From positions 3,733-67,732 of IMG/VR virus record IMGVR_UViG_3300037119_003505: DNA of 64,000 nucleotides, one strand, 5' to 3'. Of this stretch, positions 2,052 through 50,893 are shown piece after piece. Below the pieces are notes generated by a model. It was not told the origin of the DNA. It did not search any database and worked only from the letters and a program-made list of their open reading frames with translations. Position 1 is the first letter of the stretch; each line of letters opens with the position of its first letter. The position numbers and the translations under genes were made by a program. The DNA is from a virus.

Positions 2052-3944
2052 TTACGGAAAGAATCCCAAGTCCACTTCCTCCTGCGGTTCCGGCCACGCG
2101 CCGACGAGTTCGCCATCCTGTTGCTGTTGCGCGAAGTCCTGAAGGTGCATCGGCATCGCCGTGGTGTTGGCGGATGCGGCCTCACGGCTCATGCGCTCCC
2201 ACTCGGCTTCGGCGTTCTTGTTCGCGATGACAGCAATCTCGGAACGGAAGTCGTATTTCGTGCGGCACAGGTCGCACAAAAGCGCCAGACAATCTCCCGA
2301 GTCGGGACTGCGCTTGATCCGTTTCTTCATCACGCGCTTGGATTCCACCGACCGTTTCGTGCTGGTCTGTCCGAGTTTTCCGGTGGTTTCCTTGCGCGCC
2401 AAAAGGTCTTCGATGATGTCGGTTGTCAGTCCCTTGATCTGGCCGCTGCGGATGAAGTCCTTCATCACCATCCACAGTTCCGTCACCCTGCGGTCGTAGA
2501 GTTCGCTGCACGGTTTTTGATCAACTCCGTGTGGTAAGTCGGAAGGTTTGCCGTTGAAATCCACCGCATGAAGGACGGCGTTGTTGAACATGTAAGTTAT
2601 GACGCCGCCAATCTCGCCCGCAGCCCCGGTTGAGTCGTAACCAACATTCTCGGGCGACACACCATGCTCACGACAGAACGCCACGAACTGTTTGGAAATT
2701 TGAATGATAATCGGATCGGGATCGCTTTTGCTGTCAAAAAACTCGGTCGTGCTCGTAACGAGCAACACTCTTTGCCCACTCTTAGTGTGCCCAAGTAGTG
2801 CCAAGGCGGCCTTGTAGGCGTCTCCACCTGATCCGCGTGCCGGATCTAACACCGCCAGACAGGTTGTGCCTCCAGCCCAATCCACATGCGTCTCTGTCAC
2901 TCCACCGTCAACGAGGTCCGCTTCCGAATAGACACATTCCGGATCGCTTCCTTCAGGTGGCCAGAACCCCCGGCATTGACTCCAGTGTTCCAAGGAATCA
3001 GGCCCGTTCGCTTCTTCGCTGGAACGTATGGTTTCGCAAGTCGGCAAGAATGGATAGATGACTCTGCCGGTCAAAACATTCGGCGATTGATACGAGTCGA
3101 ATCGGATGGCGTAGCCAAGCTTCGTTTCCCACTCGTAATCGTTTTCCGAGATCGAATTCCACCCGCCCTTTGGTTCCGAGATGAGTCCGTGTGGATCGTA
3201 TTTAGAGGCAGGGTTGCCGATGCCGATGAACTGGAACCACGGATTCTTTGCGAGGTTGCCTTTGGCGAATTTGAGCAGCGCGTGTGAGAGCTTCGGAAAC
3301 TCGTCACCAACCATGATTACACGCTTGTTGTGACAGCCATCCAGCTTGTCGGCGCTCGCCTTGTCCTGCGAATCTTCGCCGGCCACCAGAGAGATTCCAG
3401 CCTTGTCTGAAATCTTCCGTCCGTCTGCGGAAATCGTGCGGATGATCCCCATGCTGTCCACCAACTTTCCGGGCATGTGGTCCGCTGCGGAGTAGTAGTC
3501 CACAATCGATCCCCAAATCCGTTTCTTGGCTGAGCTTACGGTCGTGGAGGTGACGATCACCATTGTGTTGATCGGATCGCACAGCCAGTTGATGAGCGTC
3601 CAGATCGCGAAGAAATCCGATTTGCCGATGTTTCCAGGGCCGCTCACGCTCAAGTACTGCCACTTACATGAATGCTCCAGCATTTTGTCTGCCCACGGAT
3701 GCCAGATGAACTCCTTCCGTTTGTTGTGTGACCCCCAAATCAGCAGTGCTGCCCGCTTGAAATGTCCGGCCTGCCCGAGTCCGCCAGCATCGACTTTATG
3801 ACTCGCGCGGAAGCAGCGCAACTCGATGCTCAGGTCGTCAATTCCTTCCGGCCACTCAAGGTTGTATTTCACTGGCACGACCGCCCTTTTGCGGATTAGC
3901 GCAACTTTTGCAAGACAAACTCCGCGTAAGCTGTAGGAATACAT
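2052..3944 (-). CDS. terL: Terminase large subunit
   Basis: Walker A SGPGNIGKS, Walker B VGDE, coupling motif GNP, RNase H-like nuclease DPARGSGGD...RSPDSGD; true start may be GTG 3878. Confidence 0.9.
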   Translation of the reverse strand: MYSYSLRGVCLAKVALIRKRAVVPVKYNLEWPEGIDDLSIELRCFRASHKVDAGGLGQAGHFKRAALLIWGSHNKRKEFIWHPWADKMLEHSCKWQYLSVSGPGNIGKSDFFAIWTLINWLCDPINTMVIVTSTTVSSAKKRIWGSIVDYYSAADHMPGKLVDSMGIIRTISADGRKISDKAGISLVAGEDSQDKASADKLDGCHNKRVIMVGDEFPKLSHALLKFAKGNLAKNPWFQFIGIGNPASKYDPHGLISEPKGGWNSISENDYEWETKLGYAIRFDSYQSPNVLTGRVIYPFLPTCETIRSSEEANGPDSLEHWSQCRGFWPPEGSDPECVYSEADLVDGGVTETHVDWAGGTTCLAVLDPARGSGGDAYKAALALLGHTKSGQRVLLVTSTTEFFDSKSDPDPIIIQISKQFVAFCREHGVSPENVGYDSTGAAGEIGGVITYMFNNAVLHAVDFNGKPSDLPHGVDQKPCSELYDRRVTELWMVMKDFIRSGQIKGLTTDIIEDLLARKETTGKLGQTSTKRSVESKRVMKKRIKRSPDSGDCLALLCDLCRTKYDFRSEIAVIANKNAEAEWERMSREAASANTTAMPMHLQDFAQQQQDGELVGAWPEPQEEVDLGFFP

Positions 3945-7071: not shown

Positions 7072-7430
7072 AAGTACTGAACAACGACGAACGCGGCACC
7101 ATTATCGAAGTCGCAAAGAAAGCTGATGTGCTTCTCATCAGCAGCAGGGTTGGAAGCCGCCGCGCCAACCATTACCACAAGCGATTCGGACATCTCTGCA
7201 TCGTGGCAGAAGGATGCGTGCATTACTACGAGCGCGAGGTTGGCTCAAAGGAAAAACCAACAATGAAGGCATACGCGAAAGGCGAGACCTTTGATACAAG
7301 GCCGATGATGGAGCATCTGATGCTGTTTCCTGTAGAGACGGTTTTTTACTGCTACAGCTACGGCGCAAGGGACAAGGAAAACTACGAGGACGACACCGTG
7401 CGGCTGGCATTCCAACTGGACGAGCAATGA
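7068..7430 (+). CDS. Cupin (RmlC/FdtA-like sugar isomerase/epimerase)
   Basis: DERG, RANHYH cupin motif, position inside sugar cluster. Confidence 0.65.
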   Translation: MKVLNNDERGTIIEVAKKADVLLISSRVGSRRANHYHKRFGHLCIVAEGCVHYYEREVGSKEKPTMKAYAKGETFDTRPMMEHLMLFPVETVFYCYSYGARDKENYEDDTVRLAFQLDEQ

Positions 7431-8638
7431 TCACCGCACACCACAAATGCCGCCTCTGCGACAGCGGCAACATCGAGGAGGTCATCGACCTCGGCTACAG
7501 CCCGCTGGCGAACGCATACCTGACGAGCGACCAACTGGCCGACGTGCTGAGCGGCAAGCGCGAGGAAATCTTCACGCCGCTGCGCTGCTTCCTGTGCATG
7601 GAGTGCGGTTCAGTGCAGTTGAGCCACAGCGTCCCATCCGAAGTGCTGTTCGGCGACTACCTGTACGCTTCCTCAACGTCGCCGTCGTTCGTGCGGCATT
7701 TCGAGGACTTGGCGGTGCATTGCGTTGACCTTGGATTTGTGAAGGCTGGCGATGCCGTGGTTGACATTGGCAGCAATGACGGGATCGCGCTGAAGGCGTT
7801 TCAGGACAAAGGATGCAGGATTACAGGCATCGAACCTTCTGACAGACTGAGCGACATGGCGAACTCACGCGGGCTGGCGACGGTTTGCGAATACCTTGAT
7901 CCGAAGGTTGCGAAATACGTCTGCGGTGGAATCGGACCAGCCAAGATCGTCCTCGCCACGAACGTCTTCGCGCACCTCAGTGACCTGAAGGGCTTCGTCG
8001 AATCCGTGAAGCTGTTGCTCGACAAGGACGGCATCTTCGTGTTCGAGAACAGCTACCTCGGCGACGTGGTGGACGACATGCTGTTCGACACGATCTACAT
8101 GGAGCATCAGTTCTATCACTCGCTGACTCCTCTGGTGCGGTTCATGGAAGCAATGGAACTGCCTGTGTTTTACGTCGAACGGATCAATACTCACGGAGGA
8201 AGCATTCGGGTGTTTTGCGGACAGCGACCCGGTAAAGATTCTTCCGTTCTTGAAACCGTTGGCCGTGAGAGTCATCTGTGTGACCCGCGCACCTACCGCG
8301 CCCTCATGGACCGCATCCAGTGCTACAAACATCGATTGCATTCGGTGTTGCGACCAATTGGCAAAATGGCTGCGTTTGGATGCCCTGCAAAGTTCACCAC
8401 CTTCACTCACGCGCTGGATCTCACAGAGCGGTTCGATTATGTCGTGGATGATTCTCCGCTGAAGGTCGGGATGTTCACGCCGGGAAGTCATTTGCCGATT
8501 CAAGAGAAATACAAACTTGACGGCACGGTGACTGCGTTCGTGTCCGCATGGAACTTCTTCGATCCTATCTATGAACAAAACAAGGAACGCACAAAAGGCT
8601 GGATTCGTCCGCTGCCGCAACTGGAGGTTCTGCCATGA
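7427..8638 (+). CDS. NDP-sugar C-methyltransferase (TcaB9/NovU/EryBIII-like)
   Basis: N-terminal Zn site CRLC...CMEC, DLGYSPLAN, DIGSNDG, IYMEH, GCPAK, YVVDDSPLKVG. Confidence 0.88.
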   Translation: MITAHHKCRLCDSGNIEEVIDLGYSPLANAYLTSDQLADVLSGKREEIFTPLRCFLCMECGSVQLSHSVPSEVLFGDYLYASSTSPSFVRHFEDLAVHCVDLGFVKAGDAVVDIGSNDGIALKAFQDKGCRITGIEPSDRLSDMANSRGLATVCEYLDPKVAKYVCGGIGPAKIVLATNVFAHLSDLKGFVESVKLLLDKDGIFVFENSYLGDVVDDMLFDTIYMEHQFYHSLTPLVRFMEAMELPVFYVERINTHGGSIRVFCGQRPGKDSSVLETVGRESHLCDPRTYRALMDRIQCYKHRLHSVLRPIGKMAAFGCPAKFTTFTHALDLTERFDYVVDDSPLKVGMFTPGSHLPIQEKYKLDGTVTAFVSAWNFFDPIYEQNKERTKGWIRPLPQLEVLP

Positions 8639-9669
8639 CTGATTTGGAACTGAAGGACTGTTATGAAATTGAAAGTTCGCTAGGTTTTTCGGCGCATAGT
8701 TTCACGGGGAAACGAATCCTCATTCCAGGCGGGAACGGCTTTCTCGGAAAGGTGTTCATCAACTTCTTCCAATACCTGAACGCACATGCACTCACTGCCC
8801 CAGTAAAGATCGTCGCGGTGGACAACTACATCGTCGGAGTGAACCCAGTTCAACAGTCCACCGAGCACGTCACCTACCTGACGCACGACATGACGACACC
8901 ACTGCATCTTGCCGTGCGTGGACGGTTCGACTACATCCTGAACCTCGCCGGAATGGCGTCGCCTGCGGCCTACCAGAAGGTTCCGCTGGCCGTTCTGGAC
9001 GTGAGCTACATCGGCACCCGCAACGTGCTGGAACTCGCGGCGATCCACGGTTCCCGCGTCCTGAACTTCTCAAGTAGCGAGTGCTACGGAGATCCAAGTC
9101 CTGAGAACATCCCGACTCCAGAAACATACGACGGGCAACTGAGCAGCACGTCGAAGCGTGCGCCGTACGACTGCGGCAAGAAGGTTCTGGAGGCGCTGTC
9201 GCACGTCTTCCGCGAGCACTACGGCGTGGACGTGTCGATCATCCGGCCATTTAACGTCTATGGCTACATGCACCGCAACGACTACCGCGTGATCCCGAAC
9301 TTCGTCCATCAGGCACATGACTTCAAACCCATCCGCGTGTATGCGCCCGGCACACAGACGCGGACGTTCTGCTGGTACGGCGACTTCCTTGCTGGTGTCC
9401 TAACGGTGCTGTTGAAGGGGGGTGATTTCTGCTACAACGTGGGTGCGCAGGTTGGCGAGATCACGATGATGGAGCTTGCCCGCGCAGTCGAATCGGAGTT
9501 TGGCGGCAATGGGTTGGTGCAGATGGTGGATGCGCCGCCAGTTTACGTTCACGAACCGCAGCGTCGTTGTCCCGATATTTCCAAGCTGCGCGCGCTCAGC
9601 TACGAGCCGAAGGTGTCACTCCGCGAAGGACTCAAACGAATCCGCACATGGCTAACTTCTGCGTCATAG
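8635..9669 (+). CDS. UDP-glucuronate decarboxylase (UXS)-like NAD-dependent epimerase/dehydratase
   Basis: GGNGFLG, LAGMASP, SSSECYGDP, YDCGK (YxxxK), RPFNVYG, QTRTFC, PQRRCPDISK. Confidence 0.88.
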   Translation: MTDLELKDCYEIESSLGFSAHSFTGKRILIPGGNGFLGKVFINFFQYLNAHALTAPVKIVAVDNYIVGVNPVQQSTEHVTYLTHDMTTPLHLAVRGRFDYILNLAGMASPAAYQKVPLAVLDVSYIGTRNVLELAAIHGSRVLNFSSSECYGDPSPENIPTPETYDGQLSSTSKRAPYDCGKKVLEALSHVFREHYGVDVSIIRPFNVYGYMHRNDYRVIPNFVHQAHDFKPIRVYAPGTQTRTFCWYGDFLAGVLTVLLKGGDFCYNVGAQVGEITMMELARAVESEFGGNGLVQMVDAPPVYVHEPQRRCPDISKLRALSYEPKVSLREGLKRIRTWLTSAS

Positions 9670-28573: not shown

Positions 28574-28701
28574 GTTACTAGAATTGAAAGTTACTCACAC
28601 CACTCGCCACGGGCACCCGCTCGCGAAGCTCGCTCTGCCTACTGCCGCAGCCAAGGACCGCCGCGAAGAACTCCCGCATTGAAGTGATTTTAAAAATGCG
28701 T

Positions 28702-29052
28702 GCCCCCCGCCCCCCCCCATTGACAAGAGCAGTGAAAAACTCCTGCCGTCTCATGTAGAAACGGCAGACGTTCGCCACTTGCTGAACCGGGAGCATGCCC
28801 ATCCTTGCCGATTCCGATCACCAGCACCGAAAACAGTATCCGGGCCGATCACCGCCTGAGTATCGGGCTCGTTGCCGTTGCCGAGAAGCATCGGGGCAAA
28901 GAAAAACCCGCTCAATGGTAGCACACGGCGGGTTCTTCCTATGCAGTTTCTCGGCTGCCAAGCATTCGGGCTATTCGCCCAAAGTATGAAAGTTTTTTCG
29001 TCGCGTGCTACTGCGATACCGCCACTCTGCCGCAGCATCCGCACGGGCGCAA
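28702..29052 (-). ncRNA. Structured ncRNA cassette E1 (promoter, attenuator module, conserved 3' module, terminator)
   Basis: TTGCGC-N17-CAGAGT promoter at 29052-29024; hairpins; aligns over about 170 nt with 49000-49162. Confidence 0.6.
28898..28934 (-). terminator. Intrinsic terminator/attenuator of cassette E1
   Basis: AACCCGC...GCGGGTT stem followed by TTTCTTT. Confidence 0.6.
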
Positions 29053-29208
29053 GAACTTTCTTTGGAAACTTTCAGCGCTTCCCGAGCAACAGATCCCACT
29101 CCGGAAACCCGAACCGGTTCTCGATGGTGGGACGCTGGCGACGATTCCGTTTGACGGCAGCGGGCGGCTGTGCGAAACGGGAAGTCCACGCTCGGTAACG
29201 CCGAGCAC

Positions 29209-44772: not shown

Positions 44773-45504
44773 ATGACTAAAAAACTGATCAAACCAACGA
44801 AACGCCACGCCGTCAAAATCATCGAACTCCTGAGCCACGGCCTCACGGAAGGAAAGGGCGTACAGAAACCGGGCGAGATGTGCGTCGAGGCCGCTGTGTG
44901 CTTCGCGTTCGGGCTGCCGCACGGCGACAATCCGCCATGCGTCGGCAGTGCAGTGCGGGACTTCAAGATAAAACTGAACGACTGCCGATGGTCATCAAAT
45001 GAGGCGCGGGCGAACGGAATGCGGAAGCTGGCGATTGCGCAGATTGGCAGTAACGAGATCGATCAACGAAAGTTCGGCGAGATGATGTTTGTGCAGAGCA
45101 CGAAAAAACTTCTCCCGTTCGTCTTTCGCAAGATCGCCGATGATAAGGACGTGAAGAAAGAAGTGGCTGACAAGTATCGCGAACACGCGGCGCTTTGCGA
45201 AAAGTGCGTGACGTTGGATGACGCGAAGCGTGAGTCCGCATACGCATCCGCATCCGCATACGCATCCGCATACGCATCCGCATCCGCATCCGCATCCGCA
45301 TCCGCATACGCATCCGCATCCGCATCCGCATCCGCATCCGCATCCGCATACGCATCCGCATACGCATCCGCATCCGCATCCGCATCCGCATATTTCAAAA
45401 ACCACTTCGGCGATGAACTGCTGAACCTCACGGCAGGCGTTGGCCTCCAATGCCTTGTCGAACTCAAATCGCCGGGCTGTAAATGGCTGAACCTTTGCAA
45501 ATGA
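44773..45504 (+). CDS. Hypothetical protein with (SA/YA)n low-complexity tract
   Basis: CVEAAVC...GDNPPCVG N-terminal domain; repeat in frame. Confidence 0.65.
   Translation: MTKKLIKPTKRHAVKIIELLSHGLTEGKGVQKPGEMCVEAAVCFAFGLPHGDNPPCVGSAVRDFKIKLNDCRWSSNEARANGMRKLAIAQIGSNEIDQRKFGEMMFVQSTKKLLPFVFRKIADDKDVKKEVADKYREHAALCEKCVTLDDAKRESAYASASAYASAYASASASASASAYASASASASASASAYASAYASASASASAYFKNHFGDELLNLTAGVGLQCLVELKSPGCKWLNLCK
45235..45390 (+). repeat. 26 x 6-bp tandem repeat TCCGCA/TACGCA
   Basis: Read directly; 156 bp. Confidence 0.95.
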
Positions 45505-48208: not shown

Positions 48209-48582
48209 ACCCCGACCTACAAGCCAAGCTGGCAGCCATCCGCACCGAACTGAACCGCACCATCGAACTCGACGGCAAGAGGACGACTGGCGAGTGGCAA
48301 GTCACGGACGGAACGGTTTGGGACGAGAACGGATGCGCGGTCGTATCGGACTACAGCGCAGACACGTCCGCCTTCATCGCGCACGCCTCCCAGTTCAGCG
48401 CCGTCACCGCCAAGGCGCTGCTGCGGGCGCTGGACGGGCTGGAGCGGGAAGCTACGCTTGGGATTCACCTCACCATGTCGTGCGCGTATGGGCGGCTGCT
48501 GCACGAGGACTGTCACAAGTGCGTTGCTGTCGCGGCCCTGCAAGCGATCTGCGAGCTGTGGCCGAAGCTGGAGGCGGCGTAA
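48205..48582 (+). CDS. Ead/Ea22-like protein
   Basis: TTGEWQV...AFIAHA...ALLRAL. Confidence 0.5.
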   Translation: MNPDLQAKLAAIRTELNRTIELDGKRTTGEWQVTDGTVWDENGCAVVSDYSADTSAFIAHASQFSAVTAKALLRALDGLEREATLGIHLTMSCAYGRLLHEDCHKCVAVAALQAICELWPKLEAA

Positions 48583-48590
48583 AAAAGTGC

Positions 48591-49162
48591 TTGCAACGAG
48601 GATTCGATTGCGCTTCTGTGCGGCGTTCGCAGGTGAATTGCGAGCGACGAAACTTTTTGAATTTGTCAACAGCCGCAAGGCCGAGACAGAAGGTTGCGGA
48701 ACCAAATAATCCGAGCGCCGCTGTGATTCACCCACAGCGGCGTTTTCTTTTTCCGACTAGCGGGAAGGATGTTCTTTGAAATTCAGGAGTTGTGAAATCT
48801 GCGCGCGTCCGATTGGCGGTTACACCCGGTCGCGATTGATGGCGGAAAACGCAAACTAGAAACGGGCGCAGGTCGCGTATATGTGCGCGGCAACCTCTCC
48901 AAGCCGGAGGTTCACCGTTTATGAGGATACCATCGGCCAACCCAAAACCATCCTTCTCCTGAATTTCAACGAGCATCCTTCAGCGCCTCAGAAAGACGCC
49001 GATACTGGCGCGGACGTATCGGCTTCGCTACTGCTGCGAGTGCTGGTGATCGGAGCACGCAGGGACAGACCTACCTACCGGCTCGCACGTGGCAGAACGT
49101 CTGCCGTTTCCAACGAGACGGCAGGAGTTTTCTCACTTGCTCTCTCTTGGGGGGCGGGGGGC
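48591..49162 (+). ncRNA. Structured ncRNA cassette E2 (promoter, attenuator, boxA-stem-enclosed cloverleaf, conserved 3' module, terminator)
   Basis: TTGCAA-N17-TTCTGT promoter; multiple stems; no downstream sense gene (meets convergent operon); homologous to E1. Confidence 0.7.
48716..48752 (+). terminator. Intrinsic terminator/attenuator of cassette E2
   Basis: Perfect 10-bp stem CGCCGCTGTG/CACAGCGGCG, loop ATTCACC, TTTTCTTTTT tail. Confidence 0.8.
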
Positions 49163-49320
49163 CAGCTCTTTTAATTATCACTTATCCGGCGGGGCTTCGG
49201 GCGGGACAGGGCGGTGGCGAGAGTGAGCCTTGCGAACGGGTCGCCGAGGCGGGTCACTGGTAGCCTGTCGCCGTACAGCCGAGGCAGCCGATCCGTAGCC
49301 GTAGCCGTCACCGCCCCGCC

Positions 49321-49578
49321 TCAGTGCGGCTTGTGCAGGCGCGACATGATGAAGCGCCAAACGGCTCTGGAGTGCCGGCACGTAAGCCTGCTCGGCACCG
49401 TACCGCTCTTGAGTGGGTAGCCGATCCGGATGCGCCAGTCGGGACAGTCGCAACGCCCCAATGGGAACTTCTCGTCGCGCAAATCCACCGTCCAGTCGAG
49501 ATGCTGCGGATCGGTGGCAGAGATCACGTGAAACAGCCCTGCTTCCGCGTCCGGTAACACGTCCAAAGGCCGGTTCAT
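49321..49578 (-). CDS. SWIM-type Zn-finger protein
   Basis: GRCDCPDW...TCRH. Confidence 0.65.
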   Translation of the reverse strand: MNRPLDVLPDAEAGLFHVISATDPQHLDWTVDLRDEKFPLGRCDCPDWRIRIGYPLKSGTVPSRLTCRHSRAVWRFIMSRLHKPH

Positions 49579-49742
49579 GCCCCAGGCTCCCGTTCCTCCG
49601 GCAGCCGCAACCGCTCCAGCCCTTCAAGTCGTGACTGTTCCGACGCCGCAAGTTGCCGCTTCAGTTTCCCTCGCTCGCGTCTCAGTGCCTTGATAATGAG
49701 GCGCAGGCTGGCGATTTTCTTGTCCTGTTGGGTCTTGCTCAT
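49575..49742 (-). CDS. Small coiled-coil protein
   Basis: MSKTQQDKK; coupled. Confidence 0.45.
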   Translation of the reverse strand: MSKTQQDKKIASLRLIIKALRRERGKLKRQLAASEQSRLEGLERLRLPEEREPGA

Positions 49743-49927
49743 GGATCGAGGTGACGGAAGCGGCGACAGTTCCGGCACATGCGGCCTTTGCCTTTTTGTG
49801 AGGCTGTCGCTTCGTGGAAGTGCAGCCCGCAAGCCGTGAGTAGCTGCGTGTTGACGTGATCGGTGACTTGGTGGTGCCGTTCGCCGGCCCGAAAACAATA
49901 GAACCCATTGATCATGATTTCCTTCAT
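49739..49927 (-). CDS. Small Zn-binding protein
   Basis: H...TACG...CRNC. Confidence 0.45.
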   Translation of the reverse strand: MKEIMINGFYCFRAGERHHQVTDHVNTQLLTACGLHFHEATASQKGKGRMCRNCRRFRHLDP

Positions 49928-50364
49928 AGCTTCAGTTCGGCGGTTTCCATGCGCTGCTCGGTGGGGCGGAACAGCGCTAGATTGCCCCAGTAGTCTTCCA
50001 TTACCTCGATTCCTCCGCGCCGCTCGCCCCACACTTTGCGACCCGGTAACGGGAAGCGTTTCACGAACTCCGACAGCCCATAGCGTCCGCACGACCAATC
50101 GCCTTGTAGATCGATTCCGAAAGCGGCGGCGAAGAAGGCCACGATCTTGTTGCCAGCGCGGTCCCGTTCCCACACCGGCCCTCGTAGCCATCCCCAGCCG
50201 CCATCCTTGTTGCGCTTTTGGTAGCCGGGATCGTCGCGGAGGTAGAGATGCCAGCCCATGTAGATGTCGTGGCCGCAGTATTCAGCGACCAGCCAGCGCC
50301 GAACCAGCGGAGGCGTCAGCTTTGTGTCGTACGTTGACTCGTCCGGATTCACGGCTTCTCCCAT
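49924..50364 (-). CDS. Trp/Gly-rich hypothetical protein
   Basis: Coupled ORF. Confidence 0.5.
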   Translation of the reverse strand: MGEAVNPDESTYDTKLTPPLVRRWLVAEYCGHDIYMGWHLYLRDDPGYQKRNKDGGWGWLRGPVWERDRAGNKIVAFFAAAFGIDLQGDWSCGRYGLSEFVKRFPLPGRKVWGERRGGIEVMEDYWGNLALFRPTEQRMETAELKL

Positions 50365-50699
50365 CCATTTCGTTCCGCCAGCCGTGCGCAGGCATCGCGC
50401 GGATCGTCGCCTTCGGCACAGTGGCCCCGATCGTACAGGGCCGCGACGCTGAACTCGTGCATGAGGTCCACGAAACGGGCGCTCCCTCCTGCCTTCAGCG
50501 GCACGAGGTATTTGTAGCACATGAAACGGTAGCGCCTGCCTGCTCCGTTCAGTTCGATGACCACGACCATGTGCAGGTTCTTCCACGCGCTCAGGCTGCC
50601 GTCGCGGGCGTCCTTGGGTGGCTTCGGTGGCTTCGGGCTGCTGCGACGCTGTGGCGGGCGTGCTGCGGCGTTGCGCGGGGCTGTAGCGGTGCTGGTCAT
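50349..50699 (-). CDS. Hypothetical protein
   Basis: Coupled ORF. Confidence 0.45.
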   Translation of the reverse strand: MTSTATAPRNAAARPPQRRSSPKPPKPPKDARDGSLSAWKNLHMVVVIELNGAGRRYRFMCYKYLVPLKAGGSARFVDLMHEFSVAALYDRGHCAEGDDPRDACARLAERNGWEKP

Positions 50700-50893
50700 G
50701 GGATGTGTTCGGCGTAACAGCTTGGGCAGCCGTCGTGGTGGAAGTGCAGCGTGTCGCCTTTCGGGCAGATGATGGTGCCGCACACGCTACACTCGCCACC
50801 TTCCTCGGTGCATTGGTTCAGCAGCGCGTCGAGTTCCGAACCGATGCGATCCAGTTCGGCTTTCTTCTGTCGGATTTGGTCGTGAAGGTTCAT
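50696..50893 (-). CDS. Coiled coil plus Zn-finger small protein
   Basis: CSVC...HHDGCPSC. Confidence 0.5.
   Translation of the reverse strand: MNLHDQIRQKKAELDRIGSELDALLNQCTEEGGECSVCGTIICPKGDTLHFHHDGCPSCYAEHIP

Follow-up and report, generated by a model that had tools for sequence, protein, structure and literature searches.

A long-range inverted repeat with a boxA-like strand in a non-coding cassette of an uncultured soil phage: a candidate RNA-level module

Phages place RNase III sites in non-coding RNA between transcription units, as in the T7 early region, the lambda N-leader, and the lambda sib retroregulator, where the full duplex forms only on transcripts reading through a terminator. 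The late leader of lambdoid phages is a different arrangement, in which PR', 6S RNA, and tR' follow one another and the terminator is read through with Q. Inverted repeats of similar size also occur in mobile DNA: the Correia elements of Neisseria are multi-copy MITEs with terminal inverted repeats of ~26 bp and a TA duplication, and when transcribed they form a hairpin that RNase III can cleave.

In bacterial rRNA operons, long-range pairing is combined with an antitermination signal. The E. coli boxA is necessary and sufficient to assemble the rRNA antitermination complex. Immediately after it comes the leader strand of the leader-trailer helix, which contains the RNase III site and has to be longer than 17 bp; the complex has been proposed to keep the leader strand held until the trailer emerges (PMC10250234). 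The gamma-proteobacterial boxA consensus is GYTCTTTAANA (PMC5725501). Y RNAs are likewise closed by a long stem, whose 5' strand carries the Rsr-binding motif GNCGAAN0-1G, and the genomic pairing of Ro60 and Y RNA genes is already known (PMC4201824).

The closing helix in cassette E2

The locus described here belongs to an uncultured phage that was assembled from three soil metagenomes at 49-128x coverage. The window, meaning the whole 64,000-nt stretch that was analyzed, comprises bases 3733-67732 of a 74,062-bp IMG/VR virus record that is linear and an estimated 94% complete. It contains two similar non-coding cassettes in inverted orientation, E1 and E2, of which even the best-kept parts are only ~70-80% identical. 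Directly after E1 come the gene for an HNH endonuclease (28573-27929) and the virion genes. To the left of E2, a plus-strand operon ends at 48582, and to its right the first gene-like ORF, 49321-49578, lies on the minus strand. In both cassettes, the leader ends in an intrinsic terminator, and a well-kept 3' part carries a second terminator and a G-run; on the plus strand behind terminator 2 of E2, at this convergent junction, no gene is present in this phage. The features referred to below are as follows.

48583..49320, plus strand: cassette E2, a ~740-nt non-coding region between convergent genes
48713..48745, plus strand: intrinsic terminator 1 of E2, with 13 pairs and a T-run, its stem ending 18 nt upstream of the module
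48764..48789, plus strand: 5' strand of the helix (inverted repeat), pair probabilities about 1.0
48771..48780, plus strand: boxA-like decamer GTTCTTTGAA in the helix 5' strand, present also in the stem of the relative L006
48790..48955, plus strand: variable 166-nt interior with two stable sub-helices (48799-48871, composite; 48872-48891, hairpin), the remainder weak
48956..48981, plus strand: 3' strand of the helix (inverted repeat)
49100..49125, plus strand: intrinsic terminator 2 of E2, downstream of the module and kept in E1
28574..29100, minus strand: cassette E1, upstream of the HNH gene and without the stem module
28867..28896, minus strand: E1 spacer at the module position, ~30 nt only

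Several observations concern the surroundings of the cassettes. Behind terminator 2, the G-run reads GGGGGGCGGGGGGC and then TTTTAA..ATCAC; it is found at 49149-49162 in E2 and at 28702-28715 on the minus strand in E1, with a shorter form at L006:3556-3565. A fourth, unrelated metagenome run contains a 213-nt contig with 97% identity to the E2 leader and terminator (48619-48726) and with unrelated sequence ahead of them, so there is a close relative in which the upstream context differs. Three further listed minus-strand ORFs to the right of E2 (49178-49651, 49739-50191, and 49924-50799) have a codon-position GC that is not gene-like, which leaves 49321-49578 as the first convincing gene. To the left, a plus-strand ORF (44773-45504) contains ~30 hexanucleotide units (CGCATC/CGCATA) at 45211-45414.

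Between its two terminators, E2 carries a 26-nt inverted repeat with 166 nt between the arms, made up of 24 Watson-Crick pairs, one T-G pair (48772/48973), and one T-C mismatch (48775/48970), so that 25 of the 26 helix positions are paired when G-U is counted and the module as a whole measures 218 nt. An earlier note on this DNA had placed the stem at 48765-48789/48956-48980, with one G-U pair and one mismatch; we find both irregularities and a helix that is 1 bp longer (48764-48789/48956-48981). Searched across the window with up to three mismatches, a degenerate 26-mer pattern matches just twice, at the two arms themselves, where shuffled sequences give an expectation of 0.00. All stem pairs except the mismatch reach pair probabilities of 0.93-1.0 in a 341-nt context fold, and folding the 218-nt element as RNA gives z scores of -6.2 (plus strand) and -4.65 (minus strand). 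This inverted repeat is real and far exceeds chance expectation; in the manner of leader-trailer-type helices, it is a long-range duplex of at least ~20 bp closing an RNA domain. The absence of this insert from E1, which the note had also reported, is borne out by the ~30 nt that E1 has at that position.

The excess stability of the whole element is due entirely to the closing stem. The interior has a minimum free energy of -53.5 kcal/mol against -52.5 +/- 3.8 kcal/mol in dinucleotide shuffles (plus-strand z of -0.25, minus-strand z of +0.27). It had been described as a cloverleaf of four arms, of which 48799-48808/48862-48871 and 48872-48891 are indeed stable (0.7-1.0), whereas the other two are not: arm 48892-48912 has pair probabilities of 0.06-0.09, and arm 48915-48936 contributes merely -1.6 kcal/mol, with the minimum free energy structure forming 48903-48937 instead. 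As the interior folds no better than shuffled sequence and just two of the four arms are stable, the cloverleaf fold is not supported. A second CATCCTT is present at 48949-48955 as had been reported, but the alternative pairing ascribed to it has a probability of about 0.

The module does not resemble a known RNA family. A match of the insert to a tRNA, a tmRNA, or another Rfam family was one of the results by which the earlier note would have given up its reading, and no family was matched: ARAGORN finds 0 tRNA or tmRNA genes in the window, Rfam 15 yields no family at gathering thresholds, and the tRNA and tmRNA models give no match on 48500-49350 even at E up to 10. The best Rfam match overlapping the module is v-snoRNA-1 (48955-49030, minus strand), at 15.8 bits against a threshold of 75, and the remaining weak matches fall on the neighboring terminator or further downstream. 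Two other identities were considered and rejected. A captured rRNA fragment would be expected to match SSU, LSU, or 5S models, and none of these matched in the Rfam searches; the 82-aa minus-strand and 97-aa plus-strand ORFs that run across the module have a GC3 below or near GC2, unlike the real genes of the phage.

A second instance in a related phage

A homologous module is found in a relative (L006) that was reached via a 587-aa virion-region protein of about 49% identity and that forms part of a complete 78.5-kb genome (G002). L006 has one E-type cassette (about 2925-3608), located upstream of its HNH gene, whose DNA matches the E1 leader and the E2 leader weakly but significantly. After its terminator 1, at the position equivalent to that of the module in E2, lies a 22-nt inverted repeat (3185-3206/3297-3318); its arms, 90 nt apart, form 20 Watson-Crick and 2 G-U pairs, and its fold has a z score of -6.9. 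Its 5' arm contains the decamer GTTCTTTGAA, identical at 10/10 positions to 48771-48780. With GTTCTTTGAA as the anchor between the two stems, ten positions are changed on both strands and paired in both phages. The strand that pairs with the decamer differs by three one-sided changes, each opposite U; two of these retain pairing (U-A/U-G), and the third converts the U-C mismatch of E2 into a U-G pair in L006.

The ten two-sided changes are the compensatory changes expected of a processing helix, in a comparison of two sequences; since just two homologous instances exist, the covariation rests on this single pairwise comparison. The interiors of E2 (166 nt), L006 (90 nt), and L004, a further relative discussed below, have no alignable similarity. 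That the stem recurs with an invariant decamer while the rest of the helix is kept by two-sided changes points to selection on pairing and motif, and, given the unalignable interiors, to selection on these rather than on a shared cargo. Conservation of the pairing and the decamer but not of the enclosed sequence is also hard to square with a neutral insertion. Judged on this comparison, the repeat forms a genuine long-range helix that is under selection and whose 5' strand carries a conserved boxA-like sequence, and a structural element of uncultured phages with two homologous instances is well supported at the sequence level. With the L004 element included, the idea that the cassettes carry stem-bracketed RNAs with variable content likewise has comparative backing. 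Beyond these two phages, a scan for the leader motif gave just chance matches in coding DNA (L027 and L028), and the contigs with homologues of the HNH or 587-aa proteins (L012-L019, of which L018 and L019 were not available as whole records) show no E-like cassette by blastn.

The conserved pairing favors an RNA helix, although paired protein sites or the terminal repeats of a mobile element would be expected to co-vary as well. Selection could act on the DNA, with the arms serving as inverted protein sites (for a looping repressor, for example) or with the decamer serving as a promoter -35 element. Co-variation fits such paired sites, and in L006 a TTGAAT within the decamer, followed after 17 nt by TATAAT, agrees with the sigma-70 consensus at 10/12 positions. 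In E2, by comparison, there is no -10 element 16-18 nt from TTGAAA. The match between the E2 arms runs continuously over 26 nt, unlike a short recognition site, and the spacing between arms is 90 nt in one phage and 166 nt in the other. Moreover, only the sense strand lets the arm differences pair as G-U: the three transitions that separate the arms (one in E2 and two in L006) all read as G-U on the cassette sense strand and as A-C on the other, a 3/3 bias with p = 0.125. We consider a DNA-level role distinctly unlikely.

Two features of the L006 cassette deserve mention in their own right. The near-consensus, sigma-70-like promoter sequence, at L006:3192-3220, lies within the stem module, with its -35 element in the conserved decamer and its -10 element in a hairpin loop, and it is not conserved in E2. 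In addition, L006:2995-3014, in the 5' hairpin region, is complementary to 3105-3124 over 20 nt at 90%, covering the loop and 3' strand of terminator 1; this resembles a pair of alternative structures, antiterminator and terminator, more than it does a loop-loop kiss.

Terminal inverted repeats of 26 bp, found in one of two paralogous cassettes, could also mark a non-autonomous, MITE-like insertion that landed in E2. A short direct repeat around the module fits this explanation as well, although it probably arose by chance.

48759..48762 and 48982-48985, no strand: 4-bp direct repeat AGCG flanking 48763-48981

Such elements have multiple dispersed copies in addition to terminal inverted repeats, and only the repeats are found here: the module is single-copy in the 74-kb genome. 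The arm patterns, whether single or paired with relaxed positions, were unmatched in viral, genome, and metagenome contig collections apart from one match on a metagenome contig (L005), which is due to chance in low-GC DNA. Searches with blastn returned nothing from phages and only chance matches of ~30 nt from plasmids, and in the three soil runs there was neither a variant without the module nor any other contig overlapping it at >=85% identity. That no further copies were found anywhere searched argues against a MITE. The module of L006 has no flanking direct repeat, and it shares the decamer and the cassette position with E2 while its outer and inner arm sequences differ, a pattern that inheritance under selection fits better than transposition. 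Hence a MITE is unlikely, and we would assign this origin a low probability.

The distribution of cassettes bears on whether the module in E2 still functions. In G002, the only cassette lies upstream of HNH, and no cassette follows the homologue of the 125-aa gene located ahead of E2, which suggests that an HNH-proximal cassette with a module is probably the older arrangement. E2 is likely to be a duplicate that retained the module and E1 the copy that lost it. The ~30-nt spacer of E1 aligns weakly with the 3'-arm region of E2 (ATGCTTC... vs ATCCTTC..., 18/25, p of about 0.02), while an alternative register gives p of about 0.03, and the two registers leave the E1/E2 polarity ambiguous. Given its convergent junction without a downstream plus-strand gene, E2 may be a decaying duplicate. 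In its full form, this argument makes the module a functionless remnant: the device would work only ahead of the HNH and virion genes, E2 would be a displaced duplicate, and the working cassette, E1, would have lost the module. The G002 layout, the position of E2 with nothing downstream on its strand, and the similarity between the E1 spacer and the base of the 3' arm would all follow from such a history. A decaying helix, however, would hardly be expected to keep 24 of 26 arm positions complementary, plus the G-U pair, when the best-kept parts of E1 and E2 have diverged to ~70-80% identity, and the module is intact and invariant in the three soil metagenomes. A remnant is in our view rather unlikely.

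The boxA-like decamer and possible RNA processing

The left arm of the stem had been said to contain a sequence resembling rrn boxA, and GTTCTTTGAAA is present at 48771-48781. It matches GYTCTTTAANA at 10/11 positions, with G for A at position 8, and the corresponding GTTCTTTGAAT of L006 matches at 9/11, the consensus in both cases being the gamma-proteobacterial one, which may not be that of the host. We take the form with G at position 8, GTTCTTTGAAAA, to be the one found in Firmicute and Mollicute rRNA spacers, and presume that a mycoplasma primer site, GTTCTTTGAAAACTGAAT, is itself boxA. This string, which contains GTTCTTTGAAAA, is a standard mycoplasma PCR primer (PMC3019172). Each of the two phage genomes has a single GYTCTTTRAA, located in the 5' arm in sense orientation. 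As would be expected of a boxA, the decamer is conserved, in identical form, in a relative at the equivalent place and on the predicted transcribed strand.

Tentatively, we read the 218-nt segment as a module that acts at the RNA level. In this reading, which we prefer, the segment would be transcribed, its arms would pair over a long range with the boxA-like sequence in the 5' strand and a variable interior between them, and RNase III would probably cut it. The module most likely acts as RNA and would be processed when terminator 1 is read through. We infer the following course from the arrangement of the parts. On read-through of terminator 1, the 5' strand of the helix would be synthesized first, and the decamer GUUCUUUGAA would stay free until the 3' strand emerged about 190 nt later. 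Once formed, the near-perfect 26-bp duplex would be a substrate for RNase III, and cleavage would either release an interior RNA of ~170-200 nt or sever the leader from the downstream RNA. During the interval, the decamer could load NusB/NusE as boxA does in rRNA operons; by analogy with those operons, this would yield a termination-resistant polymerase and keep the leader strand close to the exit channel until the trailer came out.

The involvement of Nus factors is the plausible but weak part of this scheme, and a specific boxA function of the decamer is doubtful. Since no plus-strand gene follows terminator 2, and E1, which does lie ahead of HNH and virion genes, has no module, antitermination lacks an obvious beneficiary here. 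The decamer of L006 overlaps the promoter-like TTGAAT-17-TATAAT, which counts against the boxA reading, as does the G at position 8 of the motif, and the strong intrinsic terminator immediately upstream of the module counts against both this and the RNA-level reading.

Y RNA-like elements and comparison with known systems

A stem-bracketed RNA of another kind occupies the syntenic site in L004, a 41.7-kb viral contig that has a DUF6283-like gene (52% identity) in common with the window phage. Downstream of this gene and of a terminated leader, L004 carries a 28-nt inverted repeat (7030-7057/7177-7204) that is 86% complementary, with 119 nt between the arms and a fold z score of -6.7. The stem encloses T-arm-like, acceptor-like, D-arm-like, and anticodon-like hairpins, and in Rfam the RNA scores 28.9 bits with the tRNA model (threshold 29) and 24.5 bits with YrlA (threshold 69). 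The next gene (7359-8879) encodes a 506-aa protein that matches a PHROG annotated as an RNA-binding protein and a vWA domain. A profile of 47 of its homologues finds the Ro60 structures 9nen_A (E 6.9e-10) and 1yvp_A (E 3.6e-7), and in the ESM Atlas the protein groups with TROVE/vWA_Ro60 clusters at a TM score of 0.68; a single-sequence AlphaFold model is of low confidence (pLDDT 48.8). The Pfam TROVE model did not detect this subfamily in our searches. At E up to 0.001, the Ro60-like family comprises 603 representatives, and in two of three examined contigs with homologues, YrlA-like matches lie directly upstream of the gene (L030:526-626 and L031:2356-2421, at 36.6 and 37.6 bits and E of about 1e-5, against the Rfam threshold of 69). 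A true tRNA is present in L030 too, at 316-388. By its predicted protein and RNA, L004 is an instance of the known Ro60-Y RNA arrangement, in a divergent protein subfamily. It shows that stem-bracketed non-coding RNAs hold this genomic position in related phages.

The E2 element could then be a counterpart of the L004 element, a Y-RNA-like RNA whose long stem binds the Ro60 (Rsr) of the host. It shares the general layout, with a long stem joining the two ends of the RNA around a multi-hairpin interior, and in L004 just such a stem, of 28 bp, surrounds tRNA-like arms beside the divergent Ro60-like gene. The details do not follow the layout: the E2 element has no sequence similarity to that of L004, the YrlA (RF02553) and tRNA models leave it unmatched even at E up to 10, GNCGAAN0-1G is absent from 48764-48789, and the window phage has no TROVE match and no homologue of the L004 Ro60-like protein. 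Lacking tRNA-like arms and the Rsr motif, the element does not qualify as a Y RNA on the features that define one, and a Y-RNA-like role is highly improbable.

The preferred RNA-level reading can be extended to a general small-RNA platform. In such a device, modeled on rRNA operons, the boxA-like strand would load Nus factors and chaperone the helix, and RNase III would excise interchangeable cargo RNAs: the 166-nt RNA here, the 90-nt RNA in L006, and, within an unrelated stem, the Y-RNA-like tRNA mimic in L004. We regard this wider proposal as unlikely. Should the helix and its boxA-like strand act in the way we suggest, phages far from the lambdoid and T7 models would borrow the logic of host rRNA transcription and processing, a Nus signal together with a leader-trailer helix, to produce or free non-coding RNAs. 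Antitermination signals would then be linked, in a testable way, to long-range folding in RNAs other than rRNA.

Each of the described systems resembles the module in part. Like Correia elements, it falls within a size of ~100-220 bp and has terminal inverted repeats of ~26 bp; unlike them, it is single-copy everywhere searched and recurs at the equivalent cassette position in L006 with a different arm sequence. With YrlA Y RNAs (RF02553; PMC4201824) it shares a stem formed from both ends and several interior hairpins, whereas tRNA-like arms, the Rsr motif, a Ro60-like gene, and a YrlA model match are missing from the window element. The cassette layout, with a short terminated leader ahead of HNH and virion genes, recalls the lambdoid late leader, also in L006; in contrast, no Q-like protein or qut site was identified, and the lambda leader has no 26-bp long-range helix. 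The RNase III sites of T7 and lambda are local hairpins of ~60 nt with internal loops, whereas the helices here are long-range, measure 22-26 bp, and close 90-166 nt. As in sib, formation of the module duplex would also need terminator read-through.

Relative to the rRNA-operon leader, the motif is displaced, lying inside the helix strand rather than 18-19 nt upstream as in Enterobacteriaceae, its position 8 is G, boxB and boxC are lacking, and the enclosed RNA is 90-166 nt long and not conserved. What the two have in common is a boxA-like sequence located 5' in a helix of >17 bp that closes a large RNA domain and is a candidate substrate for RNase III, and a helix that is kept by compensatory change while its flanks vary (PMC10250234).
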